A stretch of DNA of 63,869 bases, filler included, from Atractiella rhizophila (Eukaryota), in assembly GCA_021432655.1 (NCBI GenBank). It is 4 parts of 4 records of this genome, joined end to end, with 100 filler letters (N's around TTAATTAATTAA, not from the genome) between each part and the next. Parts side by side here need not be neighbours in the genome. Positions count along the whole stretch, not along the records: positions 1 to 26,048 come from MU271338.1; 3 more parts are not named here. One strand, 5' to 3'. Both the position numbers and the translations under genes were made by a program. This document shows, piece after piece, positions 5,501 through 62,398 of the stretch. Numbering within the stretch: position 1 is the stretch's first letter; each line of letters opens with the position of its first letter. A model generated the notes under the pieces. It saw only the letters and a list, made by a program, of their open reading frames with translations, made no database searches and was not told the origin of the DNA.

Positions 5501-5960
5501 TCTCTCCCCTTCCCTCTCAGGCTGCCACCTTCATCTCGCCCTCACCCTCTCTGCCTCACTAACCGCCGCGCGTAGACGCTTCTTATAAAAGCTCAAAGCG
5601 ACACCGCAGCCACCGCTACCTCTGCCACCACTCCAGCTACAACCCTCCGACTTCTACCTCAAGACCTCCACCTACACCTCCCGACCCGCTCCCTCAACAT
5701 ACGACACTGCTCGTACTCCTTAGAACTCTCCACGAAGGAGGTACAGCCATAGGGACATAGCGATAAGCTTTACTGNNNNNNNNNNNNNNNNNNNNNNNNN
5801 NNNNNNNNNNNNNNNNNNNNNNNNNNNNNNNNNNNNNNNNNNNNNNNNNNNNNNNNNNNNNNNNNNNNNNNNNNNNNNNNNNNNNNNNNNNNNNNNNNNN
5901 NNNNNNNNNNNNNNNNNNNNNNNNNNNNNNNNNNNNNNNNNNNNNNNNNNNNNNNNNNNN

Positions 5961-8174
5961 CCCACCCTGGCCCACTTGCGTGGGAATGCCTCGGCTGGAG
6001 GAGTGGCTCTGGCGGCTGCGTGTTCGATGGTATGGATGGAGAACAGTGTAGTTTTGAATCCAAGCTACAGGTCTATGGGGTTGTACGGGAGCGAGTACCA
6101 TACCTTCAGCTATCGGGGGCGAATGGGGGGAGAGGTGAGCAAGAAGGTGTGTGTGGGATGTAAGCCGATGGGAGCGCGTGAGGCGGAACAGCTAGGGTTG
6201 GTTGATCTCGTCCTCAGCGCTGGAGAGGAGATGTGGATTCGCATCCGCACCTTAATTTCCGAAGGAGGAGGCAGGACCGGATGCGCGCCATGGGTGACGC
6301 GGGATCGAACACGCCTGGCGAGTCTGGAAGATATGGTCCTTGCCGCTAGAGAGCTAGATCCTAAGGACAGGGAGGAGGAGCTGGAACTGTTCGTTGAGGA
6401 AGAGATGAGGCAGATGCGCTTGTGCTTTTTCGCCACGGGAGAGAGGAGCGAGAGGTACCATGATCGCAGAAGGAGATTTGTGAGGAAGATCGAGGCACAG
6501 AGGACGCCTTTTAGGCTGGCTAAGCACAGGAGGAGAGCGGGCTGGGAGGAAGATTGGAAGGTTGGTTTTGTCCTGCCTTTCTATTCATTTGCTTATTTTC
6601 TGTTGCTTGGGATGCAGGAGAGAAAAGACGAAGAGGAGGATGAACATTGGTTTAACGACCCTCCAGAGGAGATCACGCGCACGTTGTCAGATACAGATCT
6701 TCCAGAGGCAGATTCCAATCGATACCTTAACGAGAATGCGATGCCGCATCTTTCATTCGAGCACGAAACCAATCATGTCGACCTGGGAGCGACGGCAGAG
6801 AGAGAACTCGAGAAGACGCCGGGATTCCAGGAAGGAGAGATCGGGTCTGTTGAGGATACCATGGAGCAGGAGAAGATTTCGTCGTCTCAGCATTCTGGAA
6901 CTCAAGTGAATGGAAAGGAGCTTCGTCTGGACGAGGAGGAGGAGAATAACCTGCAGTTCACTGTTTCACATCCGGAGCACGAGTGTAGCCATTGCGAACC
7001 TAAGGCCGCTACGGAGTCCGCTCCAGAAGAGAACGCAACTACGCCCATCGAAGAATTACCCGACTCTCCTCTGCTGAGAAGGAGACCTCCTGAGGTTTCA
7101 GAGGATATAGTGGCGCTGAAGCAAACTCTTCTCGAAAGTGCGGTGGTGACGCAGACCCCGAGCATAGGAAGAATGGATGTAACCTTACCTTCTAAACCTC
7201 TACGTCCTCGTACCCCGAAGAGCCCCACTGAACGCATCCCTGCGCCGGCTCTCATACCACTTCCCCCTTCAGCGACGCATCTCGATAGCCAACCAAGTTT
7301 CCTGGATCTCGCTGGGACACCAACAAACGATCGAATCACACTTCATCAAGGCGACTCGTTCCCTGTTCCCCCGCCTCCCAATCCTACACCCGTCAAGTGC
7401 CAGAATGGAGAAACATCAGAGCTCACTTCTAATGGACCTCAAAATCCCGACATGGTAGCAATGATAGCGAATGCGAAACCCTTGGATCCTGCCGGCGTGC
7501 TCGAAGAGAGGCATGAGAGACGAGGGAACAACCTGAGCGCCAGCGGACACTCCCAGAGGCCAACCGCCTCCTCTGGCGTCTCGATTCATTCTCCCGACAG
7601 CATTTCGCCGCCTTCCATCTCGATCCCTACTTCGCGTCCTTCAGCCAGAGACCGAAGCCCATCTCGCGTCTACATATTGCAAAATCATAATTCTAGGAAG
7701 AGAACAGTCTCGACTAGTGAGGCAACGACAACTTCGACACCGTCGCATTCGAGAAAACGATCTGGTTTCAGAACGATGATTAGAAATCTATTCCATAAAA
7801 ATTCTGGCAAATCTAGTGTCAATTCCGTTGCAGACGCGGTACCTCTTGTGCCTCCTTTACCCCATTCAAAAACTTTCGATCAGGCATCTGTCACTGTCCT
7901 CCGTAGTCCCCCTCTCCTTTCAATGGAGGAATTGGCAAAGCTCCAACCAAGCTCTTTGGCAAGAAGGAGATCATTGGACGCCAGACCTAGCAGCAGCAGG
8001 CTAGACGGCGCATCATCGGATGCAAGAACCCAGAATCGTAGAACGGTTGTGATTGTACATGACGATCCAGAATGCCCTTTAGGGGATGTTGACATCAACG
8101 AGTTAAAGGGTGGAGACAGCACTATTTGGAGGTGCTATAACTCGGCACAAGAGAATGGGAGGTATGTTGATTGA
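5961..8174 (+). CDS. HypX/HoxX-like protein (C-terminal enoyl-CoA hydratase/crotonase domain) with a long disordered C-terminal tail; 5' part in the gap
   Basis: GNASAGGVALAAAC..VVLNPSYRSMGLYGSEYHTF..PMGAREAEQLGLVD matches the HoxX/HypX signature GNAGAGG..LNPHY..MG.LYGSE. Probable in-frame 57-nt intron 6561-6617 (GT..CAG). About 500 aa of S/P/E-rich tail follows. Confidence 0.8.
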   Translation, partial: PTLAHLRGNASAGGVALAAACSMVWMENSVVLNPSYRSMGLYGSEYHTFSYRGRMGGEVSKKVCVGCKPMGAREAEQLGLVDLVLSAGEEMWIRIRTLISEGGGRTGCAPWVTRDRTRLASLEDMVLAARELDPKDREEELELFVEEEMRQMRLCFFATGERSERYHDRRRRFVRKIEAQRTPFRLAKHRRRAGWEEDWKVGFVLPFYSFAYFLLLGMQERKDEEEDEHWFNDPPEEITRTLSDTDLPEADSNRYLNENAMPHLSFEHETNHVDLGATAERELEKTPGFQEGEIGSVEDTMEQEKISSSQHSGTQVNGKELRLDEEEENNLQFTVSHPEHECSHCEPKAATESAPEENATTPIEELPDSPLLRRRPPEVSEDIVALKQTLLESAVVTQTPSIGRMDVTLPSKPLRPRTPKSPTERIPAPALIPLPPSATHLDSQPSFLDLAGTPTNDRITLHQGDSFPVPPPPNPTPVKCQNGETSELTSNGPQNPDMVAMIANAKPLDPAGVLEERHERRGNNLSASGHSQRPTASSGVSIHSPDSISPPSISIPTSRPSARDRSPSRVYILQNHNSRKRTVSTSEATTTSTPSHSRKRSGFRTMIRNLFHKNSGKSSVNSVADAVPLVPPLPHSKTFDQASVTVLRSPPLLSMEELAKLQPSSLARRRSLDARPSSSRLDGASSDARTQNRRTVVIVHDDPECPLGDVDINELKGGDSTIWRCYNSAQENGRYVD

Positions 8175-9957: not shown

Positions 9958-12004
9958 NNNNNNNNNNNNNNNNNNNNNNNNNNNNNNNNNNNNNNNNNNN
10001 NNNNNNNNNNNNNNNNNNNNNNNNNNNNNNNNNNNNNNNNNNNNNNNNNNNNNNNNNNNNNNNNNNNNNNNNNNNNNNNNNNNNNNNNNNNNNNNNNNNN
10101 NNNNNNNNNNNNNNNNNNNNNNNNNNNNNNNNNNNNNNNNNNNNNNNNNNNNNNNNNNNNNNNNNNNNNNNNNNNNNNNNNNNNNNNNNNNNNNNNNNNN
10201 NNNNNNNNNNNNNNNNNNNNNNNNNNNNNNNNNNNNNNNNNNNNNNNNNNNNNNNNNNNNNNNNNNNNNNNNNNNNNNNNNNNNNNNNNNNNNNNNNNNN
10301 NNNNNNNNNNNNNNNNNNNNNNNNNNNNNNNNNNNNNNNNNNNNNNNNNNNNNNNNNNNNNNNNNNNNNNNNNNNNNNNNNNNNNNNNNNNNNNNNNNNN
10401 NNNNNNNNNNNNNNNNNNNNNNNNNNNNNNNNNNNNNNNNNNNNNNNNNNNNNNNNNNNNNNNNNNNNNNNNNNNNNNNNNNNNNNNNNNNNNNNNNNNN
10501 NNNNNNNNNNNNNNNNNNNNNNNNNNNNNNNNNNNNNNNNNNNNNNNNNNNNNNNNNNNNNNNNNNNNNNNNNNNNNNNNNNNNNNNNNNNNNNNNNNNN
10601 NNNNNNNNNNNNNNNNNNNNNNNNNNNNNNNNNNNNNNNNNNNNNNNNNNNNNNNNNNNNNNNNNNNNNNNNNNNNNNNNNNNNNNNNNNNNNNNNNNNN
10701 NNNNNNNNNNNNNNNNNNNNNNNNNNNNNNNNNNNNNNNNNNNNNNNNNNNNNNNNNNNNNNNNNNNNNNNNNNNNNNNNNNNNNNNNNNNNNNNNNNNN
10801 NNNNNNNNNNNNNNNNNNNNNNNNNNNNNNNNNNNNNNNNNNNNNNNNNNNNNNNNNNNNNNNNNNNNNNNNNNNNNNNNNNNNNNNNNNNNNNNNNNNN
10901 NNNNNNNNNNNNNNNNNNNNNNNNNNNNNNNNNNNNNNNNNNAGAGATACCAAACAATCGCTTGTGGACCTTGTAAGCTGGCCACCAAAAAAGAAACCAC
11001 TATCTTCTATTGGCGACTGTTTTGGACAAAGAAAGCGAGTTTTGTCCTGCCTAGCCAAGAAGGACAAGAGCGCCATTGAGTCAATGGCATTCCGTTTATG
11101 ATTCCTACAAGCTTTCATGCCTTCTGCAAGCTCACCCCGAGTAATCAGACACCGCGAAGGCACCAGTGTGCCAGACGTTCAGAGATGCTGGGAATGGGAA
11201 GAAGAAGAAGAAGAGAAAACATTCATTCTCGGTTCCGGCGGCACAAGGACTTTGGTATGTGTGAATGGAATGAACTCTATTCAAAAAAAATTGAAAATTG
11301 GATGCCCAGCTTGAGCGGGTCAGCAGGGAATCTGGAGGCGCTGAACACCCTTAATTATAAAGTCTGTGGGCTTATGACGTCTAGGTGAGTGTGAAGGCGA
11401 CATCGTTTGAGTTCACTTGTGAGCGAAAGCTCAGTGTTCACAACAATTTTACTCTGAAAAGTCACAACCGCTTCTATATTCTATTTTGAGTGGAACGCTC
11501 CTGATTAGTACTAGCCAAGCGCCAGATCAAATTCTCAAGTTTTCAAGCCGAATAGGTCAACAAGCATGTACATCGTACTTGTGCGGCAGGCTCATCGGGC
11601 AGGCAGGGTGGATGGGGAATATTTTACGAACCAAACCGAGTTCCCACAGCTGGCATAAACTTTTGTTACCGTTATGGTGTTGGTCCTGTGGTAGACCGGA
11701 GACGGAGACTCCACGGAGGGCATCAAGGTGTGAGAGCCCCGACCTCCCTAACACCTTTTTCTATTGTTGTCACTAGTATGCTCCGTCTTATTGCTGTAAT
11801 GCCATGTTAGAGGGTTATTTGGACTTTGAATTTAGCGCTGTGACCATCCTTCCGCGCGAAAGGACGAGCTAGATTCGTTTCAGGATTCTCTTAGGTTCTG
11901 TATATAGACAAGACAGGCCTCACATTTCCTTCCTCAACCTGATCTTCACCTCGGCTCTCCCTCAGTGAACACTCTTTTGAATACCTACAGTCATTGATTT
12001 GAAG

Positions 12005-14148: not shown

Positions 14149-16561
14149 TCAACATCTCAGCTGCTTCTTCTCCTTGAGCGACAATAACGCGGAATACTCC
14201 TCCTTCAATTTTTTGTTCTGCAGCTTCAGGTTATGTACTTCATACTGCCAGCTCGTGCTACCTCGCACTTCCAACTCCGCGAAGACGTCCGCGTCAGTGG
14301 CGCTGGAAAGAGCTTCTGTGTTGACAAAAGGGGGATAGTGTGGCGATGTGTGATGGGTGAAGGAGGAAGCAGGAGCTGAAGGGAGGGAGAAGACGTGATT
14401 CGAAGGGGCGGAGGCTGCCGCAGGATCGGATGGGTCGAATTCTGCAATATTGCAAAAAATGGTCCTCATCCCGTTCACCTCCCCTTCTGCTTCTGCCCCT
14501 CTTCCATTGGGAAACATGACTGAACGGACGTGAATGTCGAATCCCATCCCGGTCCTCAGGGTATGATGGACGCTTTGGACCGCCCCCAGTTTTAGTGTCC
14601 TCTCGATAGCAGAAAGAATTTCTTTATGACGCCGTGTGTCCAGTTCAGGTAAACATAGTCCGACGAATTTTTCTGCACTAGATCCAAGGAGACGTTCTGC
14701 TGCTGCAGTAGTGTATAGCACGATTCCGGTGGAAGACAATTTAACCCAGAAATCCCGGTTGTCTCTGGTAGTGGAAATTGACGAGTTGGAGCGAATGAGA
14801 GGCCAGGGCAGAGAATCCAGAGGTTTGATTCGTCCCACTAGGACAACGCACTAAAGCTCTCCTCAGTTTAAGTTGGAATTAAAACGGGTGAAGACGAACC
14901 TTCCTCCCTTTAGACTGTTCAACATCCAGCCTCCCTCTCGCCTCCATCCAAATGTACCCACTGGTCCTCTTCCTTACTCGGTACAGCAGCCTCACAGTTC
15001 CCGTATTCGTTATGTCCTTGATATCTCTCATAACTCCAACGACATCGGCTACAGCGCTCGATCAGTGCAATACTCTTTCAGACAAACAGGGAGGAAAGTC
15101 AAACCTGGATGGACATAATCTGCCCAATTCCGAGATATGAGGGAAGCCGCCTCGTATTCCACTGTAATGAACTTATCAGATTCGTTCTAATACATAAATT
15201 GAAGGACGACGAACGAAACTGCTCCGTGTTCGGGGAAACATAAAGCACCGTCCCTTTGAGCGAGAGAACATGAATGAAGTCGTCGCACTATCGCATCTGT
15301 AAGCCGCGCATTCTTTTCACGTATCAGTAGCAATCGACGCACGCAATCCAGCATCCACTCGTTCCACGCCCCTCTCTCGCTTTCATCCACTTCGATCCCT
15401 CCAGTCCCCGTTGACTCAACCGCCTGCACCGCGGAGGCCAGCATGGATTCAATATTTGAATCTTCTAGGATGGAGCGCTTCCGCTTCTTCCCACCGTTCC
15501 AGCCCATTCCTGTGGCTGCCACCCCAGAACCGATAGAAGTGAATGTATTCGACGGAGAGTCGTCTGACACTTCGTGTTCGCCGGAAGGGTGTGGTGGGAC
15601 ATTTGGGAGAAAGTCGTGTGACTGAGTTTGGGGATTGGTCTGTGACATTGCGAGCGAAACATCATAATTGAAGGTTTCAGCTTCTTCTTCTACCCACTGC
15701 GCTGCGTGTACCTCTGTTCCAAAACTCACTGTCGTCTGCTGGGCTAGAGTAGGAAACTGAGGAATGGTGGACTGTGTGACGGCATAATTGACGATGTACT
15801 ACTTTCCTTAGCAGTCATGCGCATTTAAGTGTAGGGAGGAAACTTACTGTCCCGTCCCTCATTCTTTCGACAATGCTAAACGGCTGCTCCACCAAATCAA
15901 CCTGCAATCCCACGAAATATGCAATCTCATCCGACTCCCACGATATTGGTATAATAGTCACCTGTCCAATGATACCATCAATCTCTCCTTAGAGAACAGA
16001 GCCATGACGGACAAGATTGATGAACGCTCTCCCATCCTTTTTGTAGTTCACAATAGAGGCCTGACACTCCCTTCCAGCCTTGATGAACTCCCTCAAATGA
16101 TTCACGGCTCCTTCATGGGTCCACTTTCCCCTTTCATCTCTGATACCTCCTTCTCCCATTCCCCCAGCAGAAGGCGTAATACCAGCATGAGGGACCTGTA
16201 AGAACCTACAATTCCTGCCCAGTATCTCTCCCCTCTCATACCCAGTCAACCTCTCGAACGTCTCGCTGCAATAAACGATAGGCATGTCCCACTGACGCGC
16301 ATCAACGACGGTGAAAGCGCACGACATGTCTATCGGCCCTAGGTTGATGACGGGATCCGGACGTGAAGCGACGCGGGCGAGGATGGAGAGGAGGTCGAAG
16401 CCTGAGGTAGAATAGAGGCCGGGGATATTCTCAGGTGGCGGGAGAGGGAGAGGAAAGGATGCGGCTAGAGCAGAGGTGGTTTCAGACGGCAAGCTGGGAG
16501 GAAGAAGAAAGATGGGATCAGTACGCAGGATCGGGAGTGGCAACATGGTCGTTGCAGCCAC
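14149..16561 (-). CDS. wc-1: White Collar-1 blue-light photoreceptor (LOV + two PAS domains, no GATA finger)
   Basis: GLYSTSGFDLLSILARVASRPDPVINLGPIDMSCAF..GRNCRFLQ (LOV photoactive Cys), NYKKDG.AFINL|VTIIPI..YFVGLQVD, PAS-B and PAS-C exons, C-terminal TSWQYEVHNLKLQNKKL coiled coil. Splice acceptor at 16562, so the start is either ATG 16546 or an upstream exon. Confidence 0.93.
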
Positions 16562-17189
16562 CTGAGGGGAAAAGGAGGCAAAAGATGGGAAGACACTCTA
16601 GAAAAAGCGACAACTTATGACGTCAGCAGATCCATCTTATGGCAGCATAGGACCACAAGCCACCAGGTTGTACTGAGAGCAACGAGTTTACACAGACTGT
16701 ACGCCTGATTTAGATCGAAGCACTCGTTCGATCAAAAACAAACCGGCACACAAGGAGTTATTCAATGCGACCATGAAAAATGCTTCCTTGAGATTGACCG
16801 AATTCATTTTATTCTTTTCTTCCTTTGCCACTTCTCAAAACGTACAAAATTCAATGTGTACTCTGTGAGAACTTTGAGTTGCTAAAGCACCGCATCTGAC
16901 ACAAGGAAGTCGAGGTACTGAATCTACACCATGCACACAAAGAGAACGATATTGTCAGCAGCATTTAATGTGGATGTAACTTTTACATATAATACATCCT
17001 CCTTTGCTACTTTTTCTTGTCTGCTATCCTGTCTTAGGGAGGCGAGGAGCCGACCAGTGACCCATCTCAAGCCCATCTGGAAGAATTAGAGCCAGCCCAA
17101 ACCGATCAGAAACGACGAAGGGGACCGTTGACTGTCTTCTTTCTTCCTCAATTTACACCTCAGGAGACGTCCCATAGCCGACAGCGCAT

Positions 17190-19591: not shown

Positions 19592-19695
19592 AAAAAGAGA
19601 CCTACGGGCGCAACTCGGACCCAGGACTCGTTGGGGCCCTCGAGGACTGGTGAACGGCTACCCTGATAACGTCTCTACCACTACACCAAGAACGC
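19592..19695 (-). ncRNA. tRNA-derived Pol III small RNA, copy 1 (not a canonical tRNA)
   Basis: A box TGGTGTAGTGG, B-box-like GGTCCGAGT, GTCTCTTTTT terminator, TATA about 40 nt upstream; homologous to 24065-24162. Confidence 0.65.
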
Positions 19696-21750
19696 ATAAA
19701 CGGCAATACCTATGCACTTGAAACCACGTACATATATCAAAGTTTCCTCTTGTTTACATCTATTTATTCTTGTTTGGACCGAGCATCATGTGGAGAATGT
19801 TAATGCTACGATGTCAACATGACGACCCTCCAGTGTGTACAAGTTAAAAGTTACTGTATTCTATTCGCAAACCAAACTCATCTCATGCTGTATACCAGCT
19901 ATCCGATAACATCCACAGATGAAGCTTTCATCCGCAGCATAACATGATGCTTCTTTGCAATGCATAAGTCAGCTCAACAGTCTTCTCACCTCAAATCCTC
20001 AGAGCTCGCGAGCTCGCTCTCATAATTCTCATACGGAGGAGTTGACTGTGATCCTCATGCTGAGTGCTGCTTGTTATGAAAACTTGAACGCAGCAGGAGT
20101 GCATTGACACCACGTGACTTCGGCCGCTCCCTTTTCCGGACATGCGGGTTCTTTCACTCACGCTCACACTGCATGCCTCCGACATCGACCACCGCTCCCT
20201 GCCAACTCGCTATCATACTATATATTCTATAATATCTTCTCATCTACTGGCCACATTCATGCCTGCAGACGAATGAGACCCACCCAAGGAAATGACTACC
20301 CAGACCCTTCTTACTCCGACCTCGTACACCTCCCAGTCTTCCTCACGGACGAAGCTTGTCAAGCCCTCCGCTTCTCCAGTGCCCGGTATATACCTTTTTG
20401 TCCGTTTGTGCGGTGGAAAAATAGCTGAGTATGTGTGGATGATCCAGTGGGATACACGGACTCCAAAGGAACCCTACACCACACCAAGTTGGGAGCAAAG
20501 CTTGGAACGCGGAGAGAGAGGAGGGAGAGGGAAGATGAACTCTCAAAGCCCGGGAATGTGAGAGGTGGAAGGAGGGATGTGGAGCTAGAAGGGATCGAAC
20601 ACGATCTTGAACGTATGTCCACCTTCCTTTCTGCCACCGAAGTATGGAGAGGTTTTGAGCGAAGGAAGATGTCTCTTTCAGCGGTTTACATTGCTGCTAC
20701 CTTCATCTTCCATCTTTCTTATCGAGGCGATTTCAGGCGGAGACTCAGTAGCTAAAATGCCGCTGCTTGCCAAATACAAACGTCGGATTTAGTGAACCGC
20801 CGGCGGAGAGCCAAGCCACTTCTCATCACACAATGTTTTCACTCCATATTTCTCCCTTTGGTTTTCGCATTCATTCACATTTCATTTCACAGTTAACTGC
20901 TTGCTAACGCCTCCGGGTGTTGACATTTGCTGCCCACAGTAGAGGGGCGTGTTAGAGCTGGAGCCAAGCGGCCGTTGCGTCACTGCTCGGTGGAAGCATT
21001 TGGAAGTGTGCCTCTAGATTCACTATGCGTAATACTCGTGCATAGATGCATATCGCGGGTTCTGGTGGAAGAACAATGTCTGCTTTATTCCTGTTCTTGC
21101 ATCTACCTCGAAAGTTGGTGGATGTGCTCGATGTGTTCTGTGCTGCGAGTCCGAACGCTTCACATATACGGTGCAAACGAGGCTCTATCGCATCATCTGG
21201 GCTTTGTGCTCTTAGTTACTGGATGTATTAAACTACTTACGACAAATTCTGTGCGGGAGGTGTGAACAACCTGTTACGCATCATAGAAACATTCATAATA
21301 CTCTTCAGCCTCTTCCAGAGTTGTGGATAGCAGACTTAAGTGTTTGATCCCTGCCGCAAGGTAGGATCAGGTCTGCCAGTGGCCAACAAACAAGAAGTGA
21401 TAGAGAGTGCAAGTGCGGCGTTCTAGCCTTAGTTAGGTATGCGCTGATTAGACGAGCGGAAACGTTTGACCGGAAAGCTTTATATGAGATGTCCCATTCC
21501 TTCACCAATAAAGCTAAAGTCGTATCATTGAGCGGATGTGAGTTCGCGAGCCATGAAGCTTCGTTGAACGGTTCATGAAACAGTGTAACCTAGCAAACGA
21601 TCCAGCTACAAAACATGATGATGGCAGCCAGGAGCCCCTTGAATGTGCGTGACGTGTTTCACTGCATGGTTTGTTATATGACAGAGTTGCGAAGGTTTCT
21701 ACATTTAGTACAGAGGAGAGCTCACATTCCAAGCCTCTCTCTTCTTATAC

Positions 21751-23433
21751 ATGAGCGTTCCTGATTACGCGGATGCTTTTGCGAAGAGCATTTGTTCACT
21801 ACACAGTTGCTGACCAAATTCACAGATACACAGTTTCGTGGAGCGACCCCAAATCTCCCACGACGCAACTCGAAACGAACCACATCCGACTCAGAATCTG
21901 TTGCATCTTCAGCCTCATCTTCCTCCTCTGGCGAAAGATTCCCGGCTGTAATGAACCACAGGAAGAATTCATACACTTCAACATTAGGGAATGGCAGCGG
22001 TTCCTTCAACTCGGCACCTCGGAGGGGCAGTCCGAAGTCGATTCGCGATCGTCAAGCGGAGAGGGAAGAAAGGGAACGATTACGAGAACAACGCCAGCGC
22101 GAGCGCCTGGAGCGAATGAGTGGACGACATTATGGTGGTAGTGGATACGAGTCAAAGAACCGCGTCGCATCGGACAATGCACCTCCCCTCTCACGTTACG
22201 CCTCCGGGGTGTCATCTTCCTCTACCACCTTCGGTGGAGGGCGGGGTCGACTTGCCTCCGAGACCATGAAGTCACCACTTTTATCCGGAGGAAATGGTGG
22301 AGGTTTCCAAGGAGGTCTGCTTCGAGCGGCCAGCATATCATCCTCATCTTATACCCCTCAGCTCGTTGTCCCCGTTGCACCAAGAACTGTAGGAAAGGAC
22401 CTACGCTTTGAGAAACTGGTCCCCACTGCCCCTTCCTATCGTCCGAAGAACGTCACAGATACAAGTGCTGGAAATCGGCTATGGGGTAAGCACACCTTGA
22501 CTAGTGCAATATGAATTGCTGAGCAAAGGGCAGGGAACACAAAAAGCGATGCTCGAAATGACCTACTACGTGTCGATCCCAATCGCGGAAATTCCGTGAA
22601 GTCGTCCCTCATGGAAGCTACTATTCGAAAAGAAAAGCGTCAATCGATCCTCAATCCCAATGCTCAACGGAAGACTTCCATATCCACCGGCGACGGAGAC
22701 AACCCCTCCCTTCCGTCAACCTCTTCGACGTCCCCGTCGAAACTGGACAAACGATCCGTATATGCCTCCTTGGGCGTCGGAAGCGTCTCTTCCGTACCGT
22801 CGCGAATGCATGTCGGTTCTCGAATCGATGATTCTGATGTCGAACGAGCTCAACGAGCCTCCATGGATCTCAGCCGGTTAGAGGAGACTGCGAAGGACGG
22901 GGGAAGGTGGCGTAGTCGTTCGTCTGCGATGGCAATTGGAGCGTATCGTGGTGATGACGGCCTTCTAAGCCGGGCTCCGCTAGAGGAGGAAGAGTACGAT
23001 AGGAGAGACTTCAACAACGACACCGCAGGGGGTTATGACGTTGGCCGCGACGACGACAGTGACGATTCTCTGCCGCCGCCGGTGCTCGAAAGCAACTTCC
23101 TTGGGAAGAAGGGAGAAACTGCTGTTAGTACACCGTCGAAGCAATCAGTGGACCTGTATGGCATTCCAGAAGAGGGTCATGACTTCGATCCGTCGGGTGG
23201 CGAGAAGGGTCATAGTCAAAGCACCAGAGGAGGTGGGAAGAAGCCAAAGACAAAGAGGAAGAAGAGTACCGATCCTGCCGGTATGATACGGAGCGCCACA
23301 GAAAATAACGAGCTCCGAGGGACTGGATCCCTCAGTGAGGGATTCAAGGACATGAATTACGGCTTGAGAAGAAGTCATTGTTTAACTATTTTACTGGTTA
23401 ACTGAGCTGACAAGTTGGAGCAGGTCTCGATAG
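21751..23433 (+). CDS. Hypothetical low-complexity (S/G/R-rich, charged) protein, multi-exon
   Basis: Long ORFs 21792-22514 and 22596-23405 are linked by an intron (GTAAGC at 22486 to CAG at ~22533). Start and end are uncertain. Confidence 0.6.
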
Positions 23434-24064
23434 CTTCAAGGTTGGTGCAAAGTTTGAAGTCTTTCGAGCAAAGAAGAAAATCGGCAGGGCCCTCCTTGGA
23501 TAACGCAACCGCTTCTGGCTTCCTGTGTACCATGCTCCATGATATTCTTACAATTCCCGACAATCTTCCTAGCTATTTAAATCTTGGTCGATCGAATTCA
23601 ACATGGATTGGTCTGTTGTTCAAATATAATCTCTCTAAGCTTCAAACTTGTCTATAGGATTGGATATTCCCCACTGTTTCTGAGATCAGTGCACTGATTT
23701 GGAATTGTATACAAAACCTTACAAGTCAAAAAGCGTTTCATCTCATTCTGCGTTCTCTCGCTTTTTCCTCAACTCCCATCCCCCTTCATTTAGTTTCGTT
23801 TCTCTCTTCATACTAGAGTACCATGTAACAGTGATACTATGGATTTCACTTCAATGCACTCTCCCAGGAACTTGCCTGCCCCGGCCCATAATGTTCAATT
23901 CTTCCTTTCAGAAACGGAATATCCTGAATGTTGACATTCGGCAAGGTGCAAAAAGGCGGCAGTTTTCGCAAGGAGTGCTTCAGATGGAACGCAACAAAGA
24001 GCAAAGCAGTTACAGGAAGTAACAAAGGAGATGGGACTTTGTTTGGTTGTAGTTGTCAGAGGTG

Positions 24065-24162
24065 AAAAAAGAGACGAGACGGTGCTCCGAACCCAGGACT
24101 CGTTGGGGCCCCCGAGGACTGGCGAACGGCTTCCGAGTCGTCTACCACTGAGCCAAGAACGC
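24065..24162 (-). ncRNA. tRNA-derived Pol III small RNA, copy 2
   Basis: A box TGGCTCAGTGG, B box GGTTCGGAGC, GTCTCTTTTTT terminator, TATATATA about 40 nt upstream. Confidence 0.68.
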
Positions 24163-24688
24163 AGAATGGTGCATCGTGTAAAATATACTGCAGAACCATC
24201 TATATATACCATAAAATTGGTTTATTTGTGTCTGTTTACAGTGGCTTAAAGATTGCCAAGTTAATCTTCCGAAGTCAACCATCGCCCAGGTGCTAAAAGC
24301 TTGTGGATAAATAGACTGTAGTAAATCCCTGATGAACAGAAGCTGTGTAAACGGAAAGAGCAGCCGGACTGGCCAAGGTGCGTTGTATATTCGTTATGCT
24401 AGGTACAGAGATTGGGAAATACATTTACTTGCTCTTTTGGTAGATGATGCTGTGGGTGGTTTTACTGCATAGTATGCAGAATTTTCTGCGCTGCCATCTA
24501 GTAATGGAAGAGCAATGCCCCATTGAATCAACCAGAACGACCCAAGCAGGATCCTAGAGACGCTCAGTTGTTCTCTCCATTCTATGTTGTGACATGAGGA
24601 AACTTGCCCTTCTACGTGTGTCGTTTGCATGTCGTTGGGGATCAAATGGACAACCCGTCCCCTGTAAAATCATTGAGAGCTCTCGCCA

Positions 24689-24800
24689 AAATGTAGCACC
24701 TTCGTTTGCACTTTCGAAATGTAGCACCTTCGTTTGCACTTTCGAAATGTAGCACCTTCGTTTGCACTTTCGAAATGTAGCACCTTCGTTTGCACTTTCG
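24689..24800. repeat. Perfect tandem repeat, 4 x 28 bp (AAATGTAGCACCTTCGTTTGCACTTTCG)
   Basis: Read directly from the sequence. Confidence 0.95.
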
Positions 24801-25245
24801 TTGTGTGCAAACAGCTACGCCTCCGCATTCTTTACGTTTTGCTCAAATGTCCCCCGGAGCGAAGGCTTTGTTGAAACGCATCCTCCTGTTCATGTCAAAT
24901 CCACCTCCCAATTCGCAAGCACATTCATCCTCATGCCTCCAGTTCTACCATCTAATTATTTCATTTCATACGGCATCCCATCTGACCTCCCTTGCCAGTG
25001 AAAGTCAGACCTTTGGTGATTGCCAGATCGAAAGCACACTGCTTGTTGTCGTGCTATCGTTTGCAAGTCGAGCAAGAGTCTATCCATTCCGTGAGCAAAC
25101 ACGTTGAACCTCGACCCTTCGGTAACGGAAAGACGCGCGGTTTCCATTTTCCCTCAGGCGGAAGTCCACCTGCAGACGAAGCTGACAAAGCTTCCGCATC
25201 ATCCTTCTAGATCGTTTCAGCATTTCAACTAGATCTAGCTACAAC

Positions 25246-25829
25246 TAGCGGTGTCCAAAATATCGCTGGCTTTTGGAAAGGGAGCAAAAGGTCGACTTTG
25301 GCCGCGCGAATACCACGTTCCCGCAGTCTGAAGTGCCTGTAAATAGCAACCGCGGAATCTAAAAGTCGAAAGTGCGAAAGTGCCACGAAAGGCCCGCGAG
25401 CGGGCCTCTGGCTCGACTTTCGCACTTTCGACTTTTGAAAACACGTGTGAACCATGCAAATCTCACGTCTACAATCCTCACAGTTCTTGTACTCCTCTCC
25501 ATTTCCACAGCCATGAGCACATCAGCTCTCTATTATCAACAAGCTGAGGCTATGATGAGCACTGCAGCTCTTCAGTTTACAAGGTGATCAACATGTCTGA
25601 CATTTTTATTGACCAGAACGTTGTAGAAAAGTGAGATGGACAGAGTTGGGCTGTTAAATCGCAAACTCCGTGGTCCCCGCGTGTGTGCAACTCGTAGTAC
25701 CATTTTGGTCCCTCCAGCTGAGTGAGGTAGCCTCTTCGGACTATCCCAAGCGCCGTCCAATATATCACGCTCTTTTGACTTTTACATTTTCGGGACTCTC
25801 AAAAGCCAGCGATATTTTGGACACCGCTA
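25246..25829. mobile_element. MITE / non-autonomous TIR element (~584 bp)
   Basis: 30-bp TIR TAGCGGTGTCCAAAATATCGCTGGCTTTTG with its reverse complement at 25800-25829; no coding capacity; internal 21-bp perfect inverted repeat at 25361-25436. Confidence 0.85.
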
Positions 25830-26048
25830 CTAGTGTCCCAGCTGGTGGAGCTGATTTAAGGCGTTGTGCACAGGAATGTTTGTACAAGAGATAACAGCTT
25901 TGCAATTACAGCATCCCTCATCTGCGTTAATTGCTTCATTCGTCCTTCTCTTGCCCTACTGCTCGTTCTCCCTTCTATGTCAATATGAAATGCACTCTTC
26001 CAATTGCACGTATTGAACACGCTGCCGCTGAAAATGTGACGAATCTGC

Positions 26049-26148
26049 NNNNNNNNNNNNNNNNNNNNNNNNNNNNNNNNNNNNNNNNNNNNTTAATTAA
26101 TTAANNNNNNNNNNNNNNNNNNNNNNNNNNNNNNNNNNNNNNNNNNNN
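26049..26148. other. Artificial contig spacer (N-TTAATTAATTAA-N); same at 57323-57422 and 62283-62382
   Basis: Identical 100-nt N block with a six-frame stop linker occurs three times. Confidence 0.95.
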
Positions 26149-40744: not shown

Positions 40745-41345
40745 GACAGTGGCAATCGCGTATTTAGGAGGAGGGCTTAGGGAATGGCCAAAAACTCTCG
40801 TCCGATGTGTCAAACGGATGGAGACTTGCCACTGGGAGCGCGTAGCTGGAGGCGTTGACACTCGGAAGATGGTGGGAATCGCGCATTTGGTAGGAGGAGG
40901 CATTAGGGAATGGCCAAAAACTCTCGTTCGACGTATCAAACGGATGGAGGCTTGCCACTGGGAGCGTGTAGCTGGAGGCGTTGACACTCGGAAGACGGTG
41001 GGAATCGCGCATTTGGTAGGAGGAGGCATTAGGGAATGGCCAAAAACTCTCGTTCGACGTATCAAACGGATGGAGGCTTGCCGCTGGGAGCGTGTAGCTG
41101 GAGGCGTTGACACTCGGAAGACGGTGGGAATCGCGCATTTGGTAGGAGGAGGCATTAGGGAATGGCCAAAAACTCTCGTTCGACGTATCAAGCGGATGGA
41201 GGCTTGCCACTGGGAGCGTGTAACCGGAGGCGTTGACACTCGGAAGACGGTGGGAATCGCGCATTTGGTAGGAGGAGGCATTAGGGAATGGCCAAAAACT
41301 CTCGTTCGACGTATCAAGCGGATGGATGCTGGCTGCTGGGAGGAC
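40745..41345. repeat. 120-bp coding minisatellite, about 5 copies
   Basis: Near-identical 120-bp units; overlapping long ORFs on both strands repeat every 40 aa. Confidence 0.95.
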
Positions 41346-42162
41346 GTAGTTGGAGGCGACGTTGACGAAAGCATCGTTGATACTCGGATGAGTAGGGTCT
41401 AGCTGTGATTCCATCCCCGTCGAGGGATCTGAGGTAGCGACGAAGATGTGGTCGCGAGGCTCTGACATAGGATGAGGGGGCGATTGAGGATCCGCCTCCA
41501 CAGGGATGCATGACGGATGTGATGGGACGATAGATTGTAATGTGGATTGCCATGCCTGTTCGACTATTTCCGTGGCAGCAGGACTGAACTGGGAATCTTT
41601 GGATGTCGGAAGGTCGAGGACATCTTGTCTGAGATTGTGTGCAGAGCAGGACAACGAACTAGCAGGTGCTTTATGTTGGTTGATTTCGACCTGATTGGCA
41701 CGCTCCGCTGCCCTTGCAAGCTTACGTAACAGAGCGCTGTTCTCCTTCCGCAATCGTTCATTTTCTTTTTCCAAATCCTTGAGCCTCTCCTCCATGCTGC
41801 GATAGTCTGCATAATTGATCAGCGAGATTATGGAATGGATTGTGAATACCAGAAGAGGACAGGTAGACAAATCCTTCACGAAGGATGCAACTCTCCTGTA
41901 ACCCTTTCCTGCAGCGCTTCTCAAAACAGATCTGTACGAAATGATCCACCTACTTTGTACAGAAATCACACGGGAAGCGTGTTCCTCTTCGCCTCACACA
42001 CTTGATCTTCCTTTGTTCGCATAACTACGCTATCCATTTAGTAACAGTCTCACCAGTCGCTGCACGAACCAAACAGCTGTTACCAGGAATTAATCATGCA
42101 AATCGATAGGTGAAAAGGAAATAGCACCTGAATTTGGGCTTTTTGGGCGGGGGGTTCGGCAT
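40764..42162 (-). CDS. Zn(II)2Cys6 transcription factor with coiled coil and 40-aa tandem repeats
   Basis: Spliced micro-exons give MPNPPPKKPKF-SCLLCEQRKIKCVRRRGTRFPCDFCTKKGLQESC (C-x2-C-x6-C-x9-C-x2-C-x8-C), then MEERLKDLEKENERLRKEN and repeats containing SNESFWPFPNAS. Confidence 0.75.
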
Positions 42163-52527: not shown

Positions 52528-55500
52528 TGTTAGTTGTAGTGTGTTGTTTTGGTCATCTGCCTCTTATGACTCTTATGACTCGTATGAGTCATCACTATGT
52601 AGTTTAGTTCTGCCTAGGAGTGTTGGTGCTCATTATTGACCACCAACCACTCCTAGCCTTAGATCCTTACATGGTAGCGAGAGCTAGTAGCTAAGATTAC
52701 ATTTGGTCACACCTATCACCTCCCCCCTCCTCCAGACCACAATTTTCACCCTCCTACACTCAAATTTCGCTCAATTTCGATGATCAGAACAGATTTGTGA
52801 TCCTCAAACATTCCTTTACCACCTTAGAAGGTTTCTGCCTACTCAGGAATCAAGAAATATAGAAATCTATCACCTTACCACCCATCACCTGCCTCAAAAC
52901 GCACTTTGCTGCCCTGGACTCAAACTTTGACGAATTTGGACGTTATAGGGCTTATTTTGATCGTGAAACACTGCGCTACAACTTTACTAAGAACCATCTT
53001 GGTCACAATAAGCGAAAATTTCGAGATAGCCACTCCATCACCTCCTTCATACCCCCAAAACATATTTTTCGACTTTTTGAAGTCAGATCTGGTCTGATCT
53101 GAACAATTTTATCGCCATTGGATTCACAATAGGCTATTCTACTATCCTACAACAGATCACCTTGATCAGAAGACTCAAAATTTCGAAATTTGCCACCATC
53201 ACATCATCATCACATCAGCCTCTATCACCCTTTCTGCATCACATCAGGGGATCTTAGGACTCAACCACACGGTCTAGGAAGATGTTTGGGATGGAAATGG
53301 CTCTTAATGGGTTGGAATTTGCTGGACTGAACAGTCTTGCTGCAGCAAATGATGTCACTATGCCTCAAGCAAGCCTTGACTGGATAGCAGACACTGGTGC
53401 AACTTCCCACATGTCTCCCCATCGTCATTGGTTCAGAACCTATCAGAAGAAGGTTATCCCTATCAGGGTAGCAAGTGGAGAAGTGATTTGGAGTGCTGGG
53501 ATTGGGAGCTTGATCTTTGAAGCCAAGTTGGAGGAGAAGAAGACCACTGCCATTACCATCTCAGATGTCCTACATGTCCCCAAGCTCTGGAACAACCTCC
53601 TGTCAGTCTTCAGGCTCACCATCTACAAGGGAATGAGGGTCTCCATCAAGCACAACAAGGTTCTCTTCTTCCAGCATCAAAAACTCTGCCTTACTGCCAC
53701 TGTGGACTACAAGAATGGAAGCATGGCTGGGATACTTGATGGGAACACCCTTCCTGCTCCAGAATTTGCTGGGAATGCTTCTACACTGCCTATGGATGCC
53801 TCTCTGTGGCACAGAAGACTTGGACATCTTAATTATGAGGACATCAAGCGTCTGAAGAGGAAATTGCTTCAGCGGTCGTCCACATTCGCAACAGATCTCC
53901 CTCAGCTTCGATCAACCATGCTATTCCCCACACAAAACTCACTGAACTTACTCCAACCATCTCAAGATTCAGAATTATTGGATGCACTGCTTACGTTCAA
54001 GTTCAGAAGGATGAAAGGCCACACAGCTTAGGATCTCACACTCGAAAATGCGCATTTATAGGCTATTCCCTTGCAGCGAAAGGGTGGGAGTTCTGGGATC
54101 CTGTTGGAAAGAAGGTCTACGTTCGAGACGTTGCCAGATTTGATGAGAGAGAGATGCTCTGCAAGGTCAGGAAGGAGAAGATTATGTTGGAAGAGCCACA
54201 GGGACCACTTGATGAGTGGAAGAAGCGTCAGGATCAGGTGGGAGATAGACAGAATAGTGCTCCAGCTGCTCCTCCAGCCAGGATTTCACTAGACGACGAT
54301 GACGAAGAAGAAGATGGATGGATTCAACAGCCAGGAGCACCAACAGCCAGGAGCACCTCTTACACCTCAGGAACAACCCAGACCGCTTGGAATACAGTCT
54401 CCAAATCGATTTCAGCCCCTTCAGGTCGAAGAAGAAGAAGAAGAAGAAGAAAGAGAGCCGTCTCCAGACCCACTACAGCTTCTGCCTGAACGCCCTAGGA
54501 CACCACCTCGTCAGTACACCATGCAGAGAGATCCTTGGACAGGAGTTCACATGCCTAGATTCTCAGAGTCTCCAGATCCACTCCAGATCCCCCGACAACA
54601 CCAGATCGACCTCCTCCAGCAGCTTCGACACCTCCCCCTGTCAACAGGCCTTCAAGAATTTATATTCTACGAGTAGAGGACGACCTGTAGACAGATTTAG
54701 GACCCCAGAAGCATCTAAAAGCAATGAAGAAGGATCAGCAGACGAGCTTGGGATGTTGGTAAAGGAATGTGACATCCTCACTGAGCCAGAGGCGATGGAA
54801 TATGGCTATATGCTTGTCACAGAGCATGCCATGAGTGCAGCAACAGGAGTAGAGGTCCCTCAGTCATATTCAAGAGCGATGGCAAGCCCTAATGCGAAGG
54901 AATGGCATGAAGCGACAGTAAAGGAAATTCAATCCCACTTGGACAACAAGAGTTGGATTCTGGTCAAGCCGCCTAAAGGAGCAAAAATCGTTGGTTCTCG
55001 ATGGGTGTTTGCGGTTAAGAAGAAGTCGGATGGTTCTATTGAGCGCTTCAAGGCCAGATTCGTCATCAAGGGGTTCTCTCAACGCCCTGGATTTGACTAC
55101 TTTGACACTTTCGCATCAACGGTCAAATGGGCGACACTTAGGACGATCCTTTCGCTCGCTTATGTCTTGGACATGGAGTTGGAGTCAGTAGATATCTCTA
55201 CGGCATTCCTCAACGGCGATATGGATGCAGAAGTCTATGCACAACAACCAGAAGGTCATCCGCAGGGTCCTCCAGAGTACGTTCTGAAGCTAATCAAGGC
55301 CATCTATGGCACAAGGCAAGAAGGGCGTCAATGGCAGAAGAAACTCGATAAGGAACTTGTCGATATGGGATTTAAGAAGATCAAGAGCGACTCTAGTCTG
55401 TGGATTTACTCGAAGGGGGACATCAAAGTACTTGTCCCGGTCTTTGTGGATGATATTACGATCGCTAGCACATCAAAGGGTGCTGTGGAGGACTTCAAGA

Positions 55501-56826
55501 GGGAGTTAGGGAAGCGATTCAAACTCAGAGACCTTGGACCAACGGAATTCCTACTTGGGGTTCGTATTAGGAGGGATAGAAAGCGAAGAATTATGTGGTT
55601 GGATCAAGAACAGTATGTTAAGGACCTTCTAGAACGCCAACAGATGGATGACTGCAACCCTGTCCTCACTCCTCTCAACGTTGGACACGGTCTCACCAAG
55701 CAGGACTGCCCCCAGACAAAGGAAGAACAGGAAGAAATGCGTACAATCCCTTACAGCAACATTGTTGGCTCCATGATGTACTTGGCCATCTCCACTCGTC
55801 CAGATATCGCTCACGCAGTCTCTGTACTTGGAAAATACCTCTCTAATCCTGGAAAGAAGCACTGGGAAGCGGCCAAGCATCTTCTACGATACCTCAAAGG
55901 CACTCAGAACTTAGGAATTGAGTATTCTGCAACTGGTTTTGACCTCAAGCAACCTTTTCACGCTTTCTGCGATGCAGATTTTGCTGGGTGCAAGGATACT
56001 GGACGTCCTACAGGAGGCTATCTCCTCAAGATAGGCAATGGAGCGGTCAGTTGGAGCAGCAAACTACAATCCCTCGTTGCCCTTTCCACAACCCAAGCAG
56101 AATATGTCTCAGGAGTCTCAGCTGGCCAAGAAGTCGTCTGGCTAAGGAGTCTTTTAGAAGAAATTGGCTTCGCTCCTCAAGGTCCTACTCCCTTCTTCAC
56201 AGACAGTAGCAGTGCTCTCCAGGTATCCAAGAACCCTGAGCACCATGGTCGAATGAAACACCTGGACCTTCGCTTTTATTGGCTCAGAGATGTTGTTGAG
56301 ATGGGCAAGATCAGTCCAGTCTTCTGTCCGGGGTTCAACATGCCAGCAGACCTCCTTACCAAGGCACTTCCAGTCGCCAGCGTGGACAAGTTTCGAGTTA
56401 TGATGGGTTTGCGCCCCTACCCAAGTGTCTGGGGCAGTTATGGGGCGCAATAAAAATTCCTTTCCTCCTCTGTGGGGTTTTAAGACGCCGCTTTAAGCGG
56501 TGCGAGGACTTTCCCTCTTCTTTTCATTGCAAAACTAATACGCTTTCTGCTTTATATGGAGTATACATTGTACGAATTTGGTGGGAGATTCTCTGGATGT
56601 GGTGGGAGCGTCAAGAGACAGCTGCCCAGGTGTGAGTATTAGTTGTAGTGTGTTGTTTTGGTCATCTGCCTCTTATGACTCATATGAGTCATCACTATGT
56701 AGTTTAGTTTTGCCTGGGAGTGTTGGTGCTCATTATTGACCACCAACTACTCCTAGGTATGTCTCTCTATACTTCATCAATGCCTCATTATTGACCACCA
56801 ACTACGCCTAGCCTTAGATCCTTACA
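52528..56826 (+). mobile_element. Ty1/copia LTR retrotransposon, internally deleted (no visible gag, no integrase core); RT/RNase H intact
   Basis: 5' LTR 52528-52671 (TG..CA), PBS TGGTAGCG at 52672 (initiator tRNA-Met type), protease WIADTGATSHM, pre-integrase LWHRRLGHLN, 3' LTR 56637-56826. Flanks TTTCC/AAAAC do not match. Confidence 0.93.
54318..56453 (+). CDS. Copia reverse transcriptase-RNase H ORF
   Basis: RFKARFVIKGFSQRPGFDY, DISTAFLNG, KAIYGTRQ, VFVDD, CDADFAG, DSSSAL, HLDLRFYWLRD, ADLLTK. Confidence 0.95.
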   Translation: MDSTARSTNSQEHLLHLRNNPDRLEYSLQIDFSPFRSKKKKKKKKESRLQTHYSFCLNALGHHLVSTPCREILGQEFTCLDSQSLQIHSRSPDNTRSTSSSSFDTSPCQQAFKNLYSTSRGRPVDRFRTPEASKSNEEGSADELGMLVKECDILTEPEAMEYGYMLVTEHAMSAATGVEVPQSYSRAMASPNAKEWHEATVKEIQSHLDNKSWILVKPPKGAKIVGSRWVFAVKKKSDGSIERFKARFVIKGFSQRPGFDYFDTFASTVKWATLRTILSLAYVLDMELESVDISTAFLNGDMDAEVYAQQPEGHPQGPPEYVLKLIKAIYGTRQEGRQWQKKLDKELVDMGFKKIKSDSSLWIYSKGDIKVLVPVFVDDITIASTSKGAVEDFKRELGKRFKLRDLGPTEFLLGVRIRRDRKRRIMWLDQEQYVKDLLERQQMDDCNPVLTPLNVGHGLTKQDCPQTKEEQEEMRTIPYSNIVGSMMYLAISTRPDIAHAVSVLGKYLSNPGKKHWEAAKHLLRYLKGTQNLGIEYSATGFDLKQPFHAFCDADFAGCKDTGRPTGGYLLKIGNGAVSWSSKLQSLVALSTTQAEYVSGVSAGQEVVWLRSLLEEIGFAPQGPTPFFTDSSSALQVSKNPEHHGRMKHLDLRFYWLRDVVEMGKISPVFCPGFNMPADLLTKALPVASVDKFRVMMGLRPYPSVWGSYGAQ

Positions 56827-57322
56827 AAAACAAGTTCCCGAAGTTTGCAAACATTTTTCCCAACTTTGCAAATTGCAAACATGTTTCCCATGTTTCAGAG
56901 GTATTCAAACGTGTTTCCCAGGCATCCAAACGTGTTTCCCAGGATTGCAAACATGTTCCCGAAGTTTGCAAACATGTTTCCCATGTTTCCCCGGTATCCA
57001 AACATGTTTCCCAGGAAATCAAACATGTTTCCGAAGTTTGCAAACATGTTTCCGAAGTTTGCAAACATGTTCCCAGGTATCCAAACGTGTTTCCCATGAT
57101 ATCAAACATGTTTTCGAAGTTTGCAAACATGTTTCCGAAGTTTGCAAACATGTTCCCAGGTATCCAAACGTGTTTCCCAGGATTGCAAACATGTTCCCGA
57201 AGTTTGCAAACATGTTCCCAGGTATCCAAACGTGTTTCTCAGGATTGCAAACATGTTTCCGAAGTTTGCAAACATGTTACCAGGTATCCAAACGTGTTTC
57301 CCAGGATTGCAAACATGTTTCC
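56827..57322 (+). repeat. Satellite variant (20/21-bp units, TTTGCAAACATGTTCCCGAAG / GTATCCAAACGTGTTTCCCAG) running into the contig end
   Basis: Read directly from the sequence. Confidence 0.9.
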
Positions 57323-57424
57323 NNNNNNNNNNNNNNNNNNNNNNNNNNNNNNNNNNNNNNNNNNNNTTAATTAATTAANNNNNNNNNNNNNNNNNNNNNN
57401 NNNNNNNNNNNNNNNNNNNNNNAC

Positions 57425-62282: not shown

Positions 62283-62398
62283 NNNNNNNNNNNNNNNNNN
62301 NNNNNNNNNNNNNNNNNNNNNNNNNNTTAATTAATTAANNNNNNNNNNNNNNNNNNNNNNNNNNNNNNNNNNNNNNNNNNNNGGCAGAGAATAACAAA

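Follow-up and report, generated by a model that had tools for sequence, protein, structure and literature searches.

What are the two ~100-nt elements that lie on the minus strand of an Atractiella rhizophila contig, each carrying a tRNA-type promoter-like motif and ending in a run of T residues, if neither is a tRNA gene? We analyzed a 63,869-nt stretch of DNA from this root-endophytic basidiomycete fungus (the window), which the title of PMC7225582 places in the Atractiellomycetes, Pucciniomycotina. A previous sequence-only reading of the window had described two minus-strand copies with a shared start, a shared core and a GTCTC-T5/T6 end. Both were recovered, with all of these parts, exactly where it had placed them:

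19592..19695, minus strand (read 19695 to 19592): copy 1, a tRNA-promoter-like unit of 104 nt, from GCGTTCTTGG to GTCTC-T5
24065..24162, minus strand (read 24162 to 24065): copy 2, a unit of 98 nt, from GCGTTCTTGG to GTCTC-T6

[quoted passage not shown] Each would yield an oligo-U-ended, non-tRNA RNA of ~100–115 nt, which may fold as a rod with a free 5' tail and may have been kept by selection.

Two copies and their promoter-like layout

Aligned with MAFFT, the two copies are identical at 72 of 104 columns and have in common a 43-nt core, whose three variable sites are R/R/Y. A 30-nt core pattern, searched with at most three mismatches, matched only copies 1 and 2 in the window, and it matched none of 100 dinucleotide shuffles. 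Neither nhmmer nor blastn (word size 7) found a third copy in the window, of which 1771 bases are N; the density is two copies per ~62 kb of readable sequence. They share an orientation and are separated by 4.47 kb, and repeat finding over 17–27 kb revealed no larger duplication around them. Their flanks had been called otherwise unrelated, and local alignment of 100-nt flanks agrees: the upstream score was reached by 197 of 1000 shuffles and the downstream score by 916 of 1000.

To score promoter motifs we used TRGCNNAGTGG as the A-box consensus and GGTTCGANNCC as the B-box consensus, both of which we take to be the accepted forms. The resulting layout, together with the candidate upstream and terminator elements, is as follows:

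19678..19688, minus strand: A-box-like motif of copy 1, TGGTGTAGTGG, one mismatch to the assumed consensus
24145..24155, minus strand: A-box-like motif of copy 2, TGGCTCAGTGG, no mismatch to the assumed consensus
19611..19621, minus strand: weak B-box-like motif of copy 1, GGTCCGAGTTG, three mismatches, alone at chance level
24083..24093, minus strand: weak B-box-like motif of copy 2, GGTTCGGAGCA, two mismatches, alone at chance level
19733..19736, minus strand: TATA of copy 1, start at -41
24201..24208, minus strand: TATA of copy 2, TATATATA, start at -46
19592..19596, minus strand: T5 run, candidate Pol III terminator of copy 1
24065..24070, minus strand: T6 run, candidate Pol III terminator of copy 2

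The A box occupies RNA positions 8–18 in both copies, the same place as in tRNA genes and as expected of a tRNA-type Pol III gene. Three differences between the copies, at RNA positions 11–13, coincide with C and NN in the assumed consensus. By eye, as many as three remnants resembling a B box can also be picked out in the core (GTTCRCCAGTCC, AACGAGTCC and GGTYCGR). The TATA reported earlier at about 40 nt upstream is present in both copies, with starts at -41 in copy 1 and at -46, -44, -42 and -25 in copy 2. A TATA starting between -60 and -25 occurs at 5.8–6% of random window positions; with a background of ~6% per site, TATA at both copies would arise by chance with a probability of ~0.004, a post hoc figure. 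TATA motifs 5' of tRNA genes are described for plants and S. cerevisiae in PMC3082873. At the other end, the T5/T6 run directly follows the conserved GTCTC, and neither copy contains an internal T4; a T7 run lies ~20 nt further downstream of the T5 run of copy 1. Elsewhere in the window, perfect A-box matches at 18483, 18790 and 46351 and a perfect B-box match at 31701 were set aside as isolated, without the rest of the layout.

No tRNA gene accounts for these motifs. ARAGORN called none in the window, and with introns allowed it again called none, whether given the 500-nt region of each copy or the entire window; at lowered thresholds its only calls were mutually inconsistent. By eye, neither copy contains a complement of GCGTTCT that could form an acceptor stem. 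Rfam 15, whose families include the vault, Y and VA RNAs, gave no match in the window at gathering score. At E ≤ 10, searches of the 5-kb region and of each copy alone (146–151-nt queries) returned only noise (sR43 at E = 8, elsewhere; Ms_AS-4 at E = 7.6), with the tRNA models unmatched. The sequence-only reading had anticipated the lack of a cloverleaf, an acceptor stem and an Rfam match, and had named an intron-containing tRNA or a known Rfam family as the outcomes that would speak against it; neither matched. Among other candidates, a ribozyme-bearing retroelement was rejected (no Rfam ribozyme match), as was a C/D or H/ACA small nucleolar RNA (no box motifs seen by eye).

From this layout we infer Pol III transcription and approximate RNA ends. 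TFIIIC would bind the internal A box (RNA positions 8–18) and one degenerate B-box-like motif, and TFIIIB/TBP would assemble on the TATA ~41–46 nt upstream. Pol III would start a few to ~15 nt upstream of GCGTTC and stop at the T5/T6 run. The product would be a ~100–115-nt RNA with an oligo-U end that could not fold as a tRNA.

Mosaic divergence and the mobile-element question

The two copies differ in a strongly clustered way: their alignment breaks into 24 match/mismatch runs, and none of 20,000 permutations gave as few. Matches reach 41 in the best 44-column window and fall to 2 in the worst 15-column window; each extreme was seen in 2 of 20,000 permutations and both jointly in none. In copy 1 numbering, blocks 1–22, 37–80 and 96–104 contain only six differences (counted on the MAFFT alignment), and segments 23–36 and 81–95 are essentially randomised, with divergence like that of the flanks. 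Such a mosaic is not what a duplicate acquires by decaying neutrally. The clustering thus argues for constraint on a host gene or, alternatively, on the lineage of a mobile element. It can arise in three ways: a host gene may be under purifying selection, the master copies of a mobile element may be under selection, or gene conversion may have run in several short tracts.

A mobile origin is a less likely alternative. The copies would be relics or active members of a Pol III-driven mobile family, either a short tRNA-related short interspersed element (SINE) or solo long terminal repeats (LTRs) of TRIMs (terminal-repeat retrotransposons in miniature) of the Helenus/TRIMp3 type, and would belong to different subfamilies. 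The conserved blocks would then be the promoter and cis-signals of the element, not the mark of a host RNA function. As described in PMC10886601, the tRNA-like parts of Helenus LTRs are conserved around boxes A and B without forming functional-tRNA folds, and Helenus is abundant in Pucciniales, of the same subphylum, and apparently mobilised by Copia elements. A Copia-type element is present in our window. The unrelated flanks of the two copies are as expected from separate insertions, and mosaic conservation suits a comparison between subfamilies. By eye, the likeness starts near a TG (TGRTATAT) and fades near GACA, ~16 nt past the T run, which outlines candidate TG..CA units of 158–159 nt.

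The marks of insertion are missing at both copies. Helenus, according to PMC10886601, makes duplications of the target site (TSDs) that are 5 bp long and has two LTRs with a primer-binding site (PBS) as well as a polypurine tract (PPT) between them. Among pairs of TG..CA boundaries (up to 150 nt on each side), a 5-bp TSD was found for 0 of 143 at copy 1, 0 of 120 at copy 2 and 0 of 110 under a two-LTR model. No exact direct repeat of at least 6 nt is shared between the upstream 40 nt and the downstream 80 nt of either copy, and there is no A-rich or simple-repeat tail, the unit ending in its T run; the earlier statement that TSDs and a tail like that of long interspersed elements (LINEs) are lacking thus holds. 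By eye, with no set of tRNAs compared, a tRNA-complementary PBS was not evident just downstream of copy 2, and the 4.3 kb between the copies holds a spliced, expressed plus-strand gene rather than a TRIM interior. The tRNA-like parts of Helenus are called tRNA (pseudo)genes by tRNAscan-SE in PMC10886601, whereas ARAGORN and Rfam find none here. That paper also reports Helenus as not found in the Pucciniomycotina genera it names outside Pucciniales, Atractiella not being among those named. Finally, the readable ~62 kb contain only two copies. Solo LTRs or SINE relics old enough to have lost their TSDs are possible.

The proposal that the pair is a maintained non-coding RNA (ncRNA) rather than a decaying SINE thus stands in part. 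Mosaic divergence and the lack of insertion marks fit it, but a mobile-element relic would equally give a mosaic. Since the same pattern is expected from two subfamilies of a Pol III-driven element, maintenance as an ncRNA rather than survival as a mobile-element relic is not established by it.

The Copia-type retrotransposon lies at 53258–56453 on the plus strand and encodes, in several frames, gag-pre-integrase, Pol beta-barrel and then RVT_2 (E = 1.9e-59) domains. Downstream of it, GTTTGGATRCC occurs six times at 56921–57293, at intervals of ~62–83 nt.

Predicted fold and transcript evidence

The minimum-energy folds of both copies are rods with a 6-bp closing stem beside the U-tail, an invariant hairpin as cap and ~19 nt free at the 5' end. 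The cap is the conserved 30-nt hairpin of the core:

19621..19650, minus strand: conserved 30-nt core hairpin of copy 1, stems CCAG/CUGG and CUCG/CGAG, 10-nt loop
24093..24122, minus strand: conserved 30-nt core hairpin of copy 2, pair probabilities ~1.0

The predicted folds pair one randomised segment with the other within each copy. The closing stem is AGAGAC/GUCUCU in copy 1 and AGACGA/UCGUCU in copy 2, so three of its six pairs are changed on both sides. Duplex energies of the variable segments are -14.1 and -13.5 kcal/mol for cognate partners and -12.2 and -9.0 kcal/mol for swapped partners. In the ensemble, the rod dominates copy 2 (pair probabilities 0.85–1.0) and makes up about half of copy 1, the other half being a fold that uses the 5' end. 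By eye, the arms of the core hairpin of copy 1 are also direct repeats at 8 of 10 positions.

The rod is a plausible model. The RNA that we favor would most likely present a ~19-nt single-stranded 5' tail followed by an imperfect rod, closed by the 6-bp stem next to the U-tail and capped by the invariant 30-nt hairpin. If there is a function, we infer that the likeliest is a scaffold for a small La-bound ribonucleoprotein (RNP). A microRNA-like or shRNA-like hairpin was considered by eye and seems improbable, given the rod's many internal loops and a stability z-score near 0.

Several results weigh against a selected Pol III RNA with this fold. Fold stability equals that of shuffles, with z-scores of 0.22 and 0.11. 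For the duplexes, shuffle means were -9.6 and -8.8 kcal/mol, and the observed energies were reached by 139 and 141 of 2000 shuffles (~7% each), which is modest support. RNAalifold, run on the MAFFT alignment, favors a different fold in which 7–11 pairs with 45–49, and that fold has a compensatory pair of its own, 11:45 (U11-A45 to C11-G45). The register of the closing stem relative to the T run shifts by 2 nt between copies. With only two sequences, apparent covariation comes cheaply, and the fold is not settled by it. Accordingly, the earlier claim that the segment after the A box pairs with the 3' end in a closed rod is borne out as far as the pairings in the predicted folds go; the z-scores of ~0.1–0.2, the ~7% stem test and the RNAalifold alternative tell against it. 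The promoter motifs are also less telling than they look. A-box matches with at most one mismatch number 32 in the window against 19.9 expected; as the motif is not rare, it carries little weight by itself. B-box matches with at most two mismatches number 144 against 156 expected, which is chance level, and copy 1 needs three. Thus, of the two boxes reported earlier, the A box stands, with 0 and 1 mismatches, and the B box is weaker than claimed. Upstream, likeness beyond the TATA is non-significant (the 197 of 1000 shuffles given above), and the mosaic itself is also explicable by selection on a mobile-element lineage or by patchy gene conversion.

Transcript data and searches for relatives belong on the same side. 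A search for runs returned 24 (7 recorded as RNA, 14 guessed to be RNA and 3 of unknown kind), the best including root and soil metatranscriptomes; four of them (X1, X5, X22 and X2) were examined as assembled contigs, which give no strand, ends or level. No contig in these four runs covers copy 1. Copy 2 is covered by one contig, in X22 only, which appears to span 24037–24166 (as deduced from joints and bin depths). It ends 4 nt upstream of the first base of copy 2 and is joined at 23911 to the 3' part of the neighboring mRNA. This contig may be an mRNA 3' untranslated region (UTR) that reads copy 2 in antisense, or a merged minus-strand transcript. Since the contigs carry neither strand nor ends, it counts neither way. 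No relatives beyond the two copies were found in the window or in metagenome, prokaryote or viral contigs: a 21-nt core had no exact match in any of these three contig collections. A gapped three-block pattern hit seven metagenome loci, all seven of them unrelated, GC-rich and bacterial- and coding-looking, and these were rejected. The lineage is poorly sampled and the collections searched are not of fungal genomes, so the absence of relatives says little. We found no description of such an RNA in Atractiella or other Pucciniomycotina in the collection of open-access papers searched.

The join in the X22 contig itself links 23911 to 24037, skipping 125 nt (23912–24036) with non-canonical AA..GA ends; it could be an indel allele or an assembly effect.

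The same data bear on an origin that involves no Pol III, which we consider improbable. The copies would be an old local duplicate of an intergenic or UTR segment, their conserved blocks left by patchy gene conversion or by regulation on the plus strand or in the DNA, with the A box, TATA and T run there by coincidence. A spacing of 4.47 kb in the same orientation favors ectopic conversion, A- and B-box matches are frequent by chance, the fold is unremarkable in stability, and an RNA-run contig (X22) runs through copy 2 along with the 3' part of a plus-strand mRNA. Against this, conversion would have to have run in several short tracts to leave three conserved blocks with randomised segments between them, and copy 1 lies beyond the poly(A) end of the upstream gene. 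The layout is also coherent for Pol III: an A box at the tRNA position 8–18, a TATA at about -41 to -46 twice (~0.06 squared, post hoc) and a T5/T6 run where the likeness ends.

Gene setting and known systems

Both copies lie in intergenic gaps between plus-strand genes, antisense to those genes, and as a pair they bracket exactly one gene in the window:

20146..23911, plus strand: spliced gene between the two copies, introns 20385–20446, 20613–21825, 22485–22532 and 23374–23423; context, not part of the RNA

The plus-strand transcript that precedes copy 1 has a loose poly(A) end at 19476; copy 1 lies ~116 nt past this end and ~450 nt before the first covered base of the next gene; copy 2 lies ~150 nt past 23911. 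The bracketed gene has two large open frames without a Pfam match, and one of its exons reads as a Ser-, Asp- and Lys-rich, disordered-looking protein. The window as a whole is eukaryotic and fungal, with short GT..AG introns of 48–62 nt.

This setting raises the question of whether DNA, rather than RNA, is the functional form. In such a case the copies would be TFIIIC/TFIIIB platforms, resembling a tRNA gene, an extra-TFIIIC (ETC) site or a B-box cluster, that block Pol II read-through and insulate the well-expressed bracketed gene from its tandem neighbors, with the RNA as a by-product. At an ETC site TFIIIC sits on a B box and Pol III is scarce or absent. We rate this as rather unlikely. 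The position of the copies between same-strand plus genes and antisense to them, the bracketing of exactly one gene and the up to three B-box-like remnants in the core would all suit it. In S. cerevisiae, tRNA genes and an ETC site in a tRNA pseudogene stop upstream transcripts and prevent 5'- and 3'-extended mRNAs, as given in PMC4228148. Yet the B-box-like motifs are all degenerate, each alone being no more than chance would give, only one of the genes in the window is bracketed, and a role of the DNA alone leaves the invariant first 10 nt, the GTCTC-T-run end and the pairing of the variable segments unexplained. For the selected RNA that we favor, an additional DNA-level effect of bound Pol III factors on neighboring genes is possible.

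Within the bracketed gene, the plus-strand intron at 20613–21825 measures 1213 nt, unusually long for this genome. Run X22 has a separate contig of lower depth (19 versus 320–530) over 20583–21500, with 19 differences; an allele, intron retention or a nested transcript could each explain it. A perfect tandem repeat with a 28-nt unit, AAATGTAGCACCTTCGTTTGCACTTTCG, fills 24689–24828, in the intergenic stretch that follows and ~530 nt from copy 2; it was listed as four overlapping 56-nt copies at 28-nt spacing. Further along, a 35-nt inverted repeat pair (25241–25275 and 25800–25834, 94% complementary, 524 nt apart) lies near a 37-nt near-palindrome at 25361–25436, and together these may possibly be a small foldback element or one resembling a miniature inverted-repeat transposable element.

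Further features lie elsewhere in the window. A white-collar-1-like blue-light receptor gene lies at 14149–16597 on the minus strand, with LOV/PAS_9 and PAS_4 exons; the translation of one exon matches an Atractiella rhizophila protein with 100% identity over the part aligned. A long exon at 5724–8174 on the plus strand encodes a crotonase-fold (ECH_1) protein, whose relatives are fungal and actinobacterial HoxX/HypX-like enoyl-CoA hydratases/formyltransferases at 30–44% identity over about a quarter of the query. Matches by blastn at an exact spacing of 126 nt at 40854–41246, in the open reading frame (ORF) 40764–41969 on the minus strand, indicate a 126-nt (42-codon) tandem repeat inside a coiled-coil-like ORF. 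The N bases fall in nine runs (5776–5960, 9958–10942, 26049–26092, 26105–26148, 57323–57366, 57379–57422, 59165–59501, 62283–62326 and 62339–62382), with a layout of 44 N, 12 bases and 44 N at three places. An apparent low-GC island at 10–12 kb and ORFs open in all six frames were rejected as artefacts of the 985-N run at 9958–10942.

Molecular study of the Atractiellomycetes is sparse, and we know of few fungal Pol III transcripts beyond tRNA, 5S, U6, 7SL and the RNase P/MRP RNAs. A selected non-tRNA Pol III RNA from a tRNA gene would be a new lineage-specific fungal small RNA and would show the recycling of a tRNA promoter. If instead the copies are mobile-element relics, Pol III-promoter retroelements would extend beyond the rusts and the few Agaricomycetes named in PMC10886601. 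As the claim rests on two copies known from their DNA, its present weight is modest. A bolder proposal, which we regard as doubtful, is that the copies are the first two members of an undescribed fungal family of Pol III small RNAs, ~100 nt long, derived from a tRNA promoter and selected as a small RNP component, with an unpaired 5' tail, a closing stem that co-varies and the invariant 30-nt hairpin. They would be a counterpart in layout of the vault/Y/BC1 class, and their genes may double as Pol III roadblocks beside a highly expressed gene.

Among known systems, mobile elements share the promoter. The Helenus/TRIMp3 elements, as described in PMC10886601, are alike in having a tRNA-like Pol III promoter without a functional tRNA fold and conservation focused on the boxes. 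The copies here differ in lacking an LTR pair with PBS and PPT and a 5-bp TSD, in going unrecognised by tRNA finders and in having a host gene between them, the comparison being one of descriptions, not of sequences. The 'simple' tRNA-related SINEs resemble the copies in their A-/B-box head at the 5' end, their ~100-nt length and their dispersal in unrelated flanks. Here, in contrast, a TSD and an A-rich or LINE-derived tail are lacking, the likeness ends in a T-run terminator of its own, and the TATA stands at a fixed upstream distance that retroposition would not carry along.

Vault RNA (presumably Rfam RF00006) has a layout of ~100 nt with internal A and B boxes, an upstream TATA, a T-run end, a variable middle and paired 5' and 3' ends, and it associates with the major vault protein. 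The two copies resemble it in their ~100-nt length, A/B-box-like motifs, upstream TATA and T-run end. They differ in that here the middle is conserved and the stem-forming segments vary, with no Rfam match at E ≤ 10. Moreover, the 5' and 3' ends of vault and VA RNAs pair, whereas here the first 16–19 nt are unpaired with the 3' end in the predicted folds. The resemblance to vault or VA RNAs proposed earlier thus extends to layout only: no Rfam match accompanies it, and pairing with the 3' end does not involve the first 19 nt.

BC1 is a lineage-specific, tRNA-derived Pol III small RNA of rodents. With it, and with the ETC9 tRNA pseudogene of S. cerevisiae, the copies share a tRNA-type internal promoter at the 5' end, the lack of a cloverleaf, small size, a T-run end and a narrow taxonomic range. 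ETC9 recruits TFIIIC and TFIIIB, according to PMC4228148. There is no sequence relation to either, and here two diverged paralogues, known from sequence alone, share a 43-nt non-tRNA core. If real, the Atractiella RNA would join the lineage-specific tRNA-derived Pol III RNAs and would not be a new category.

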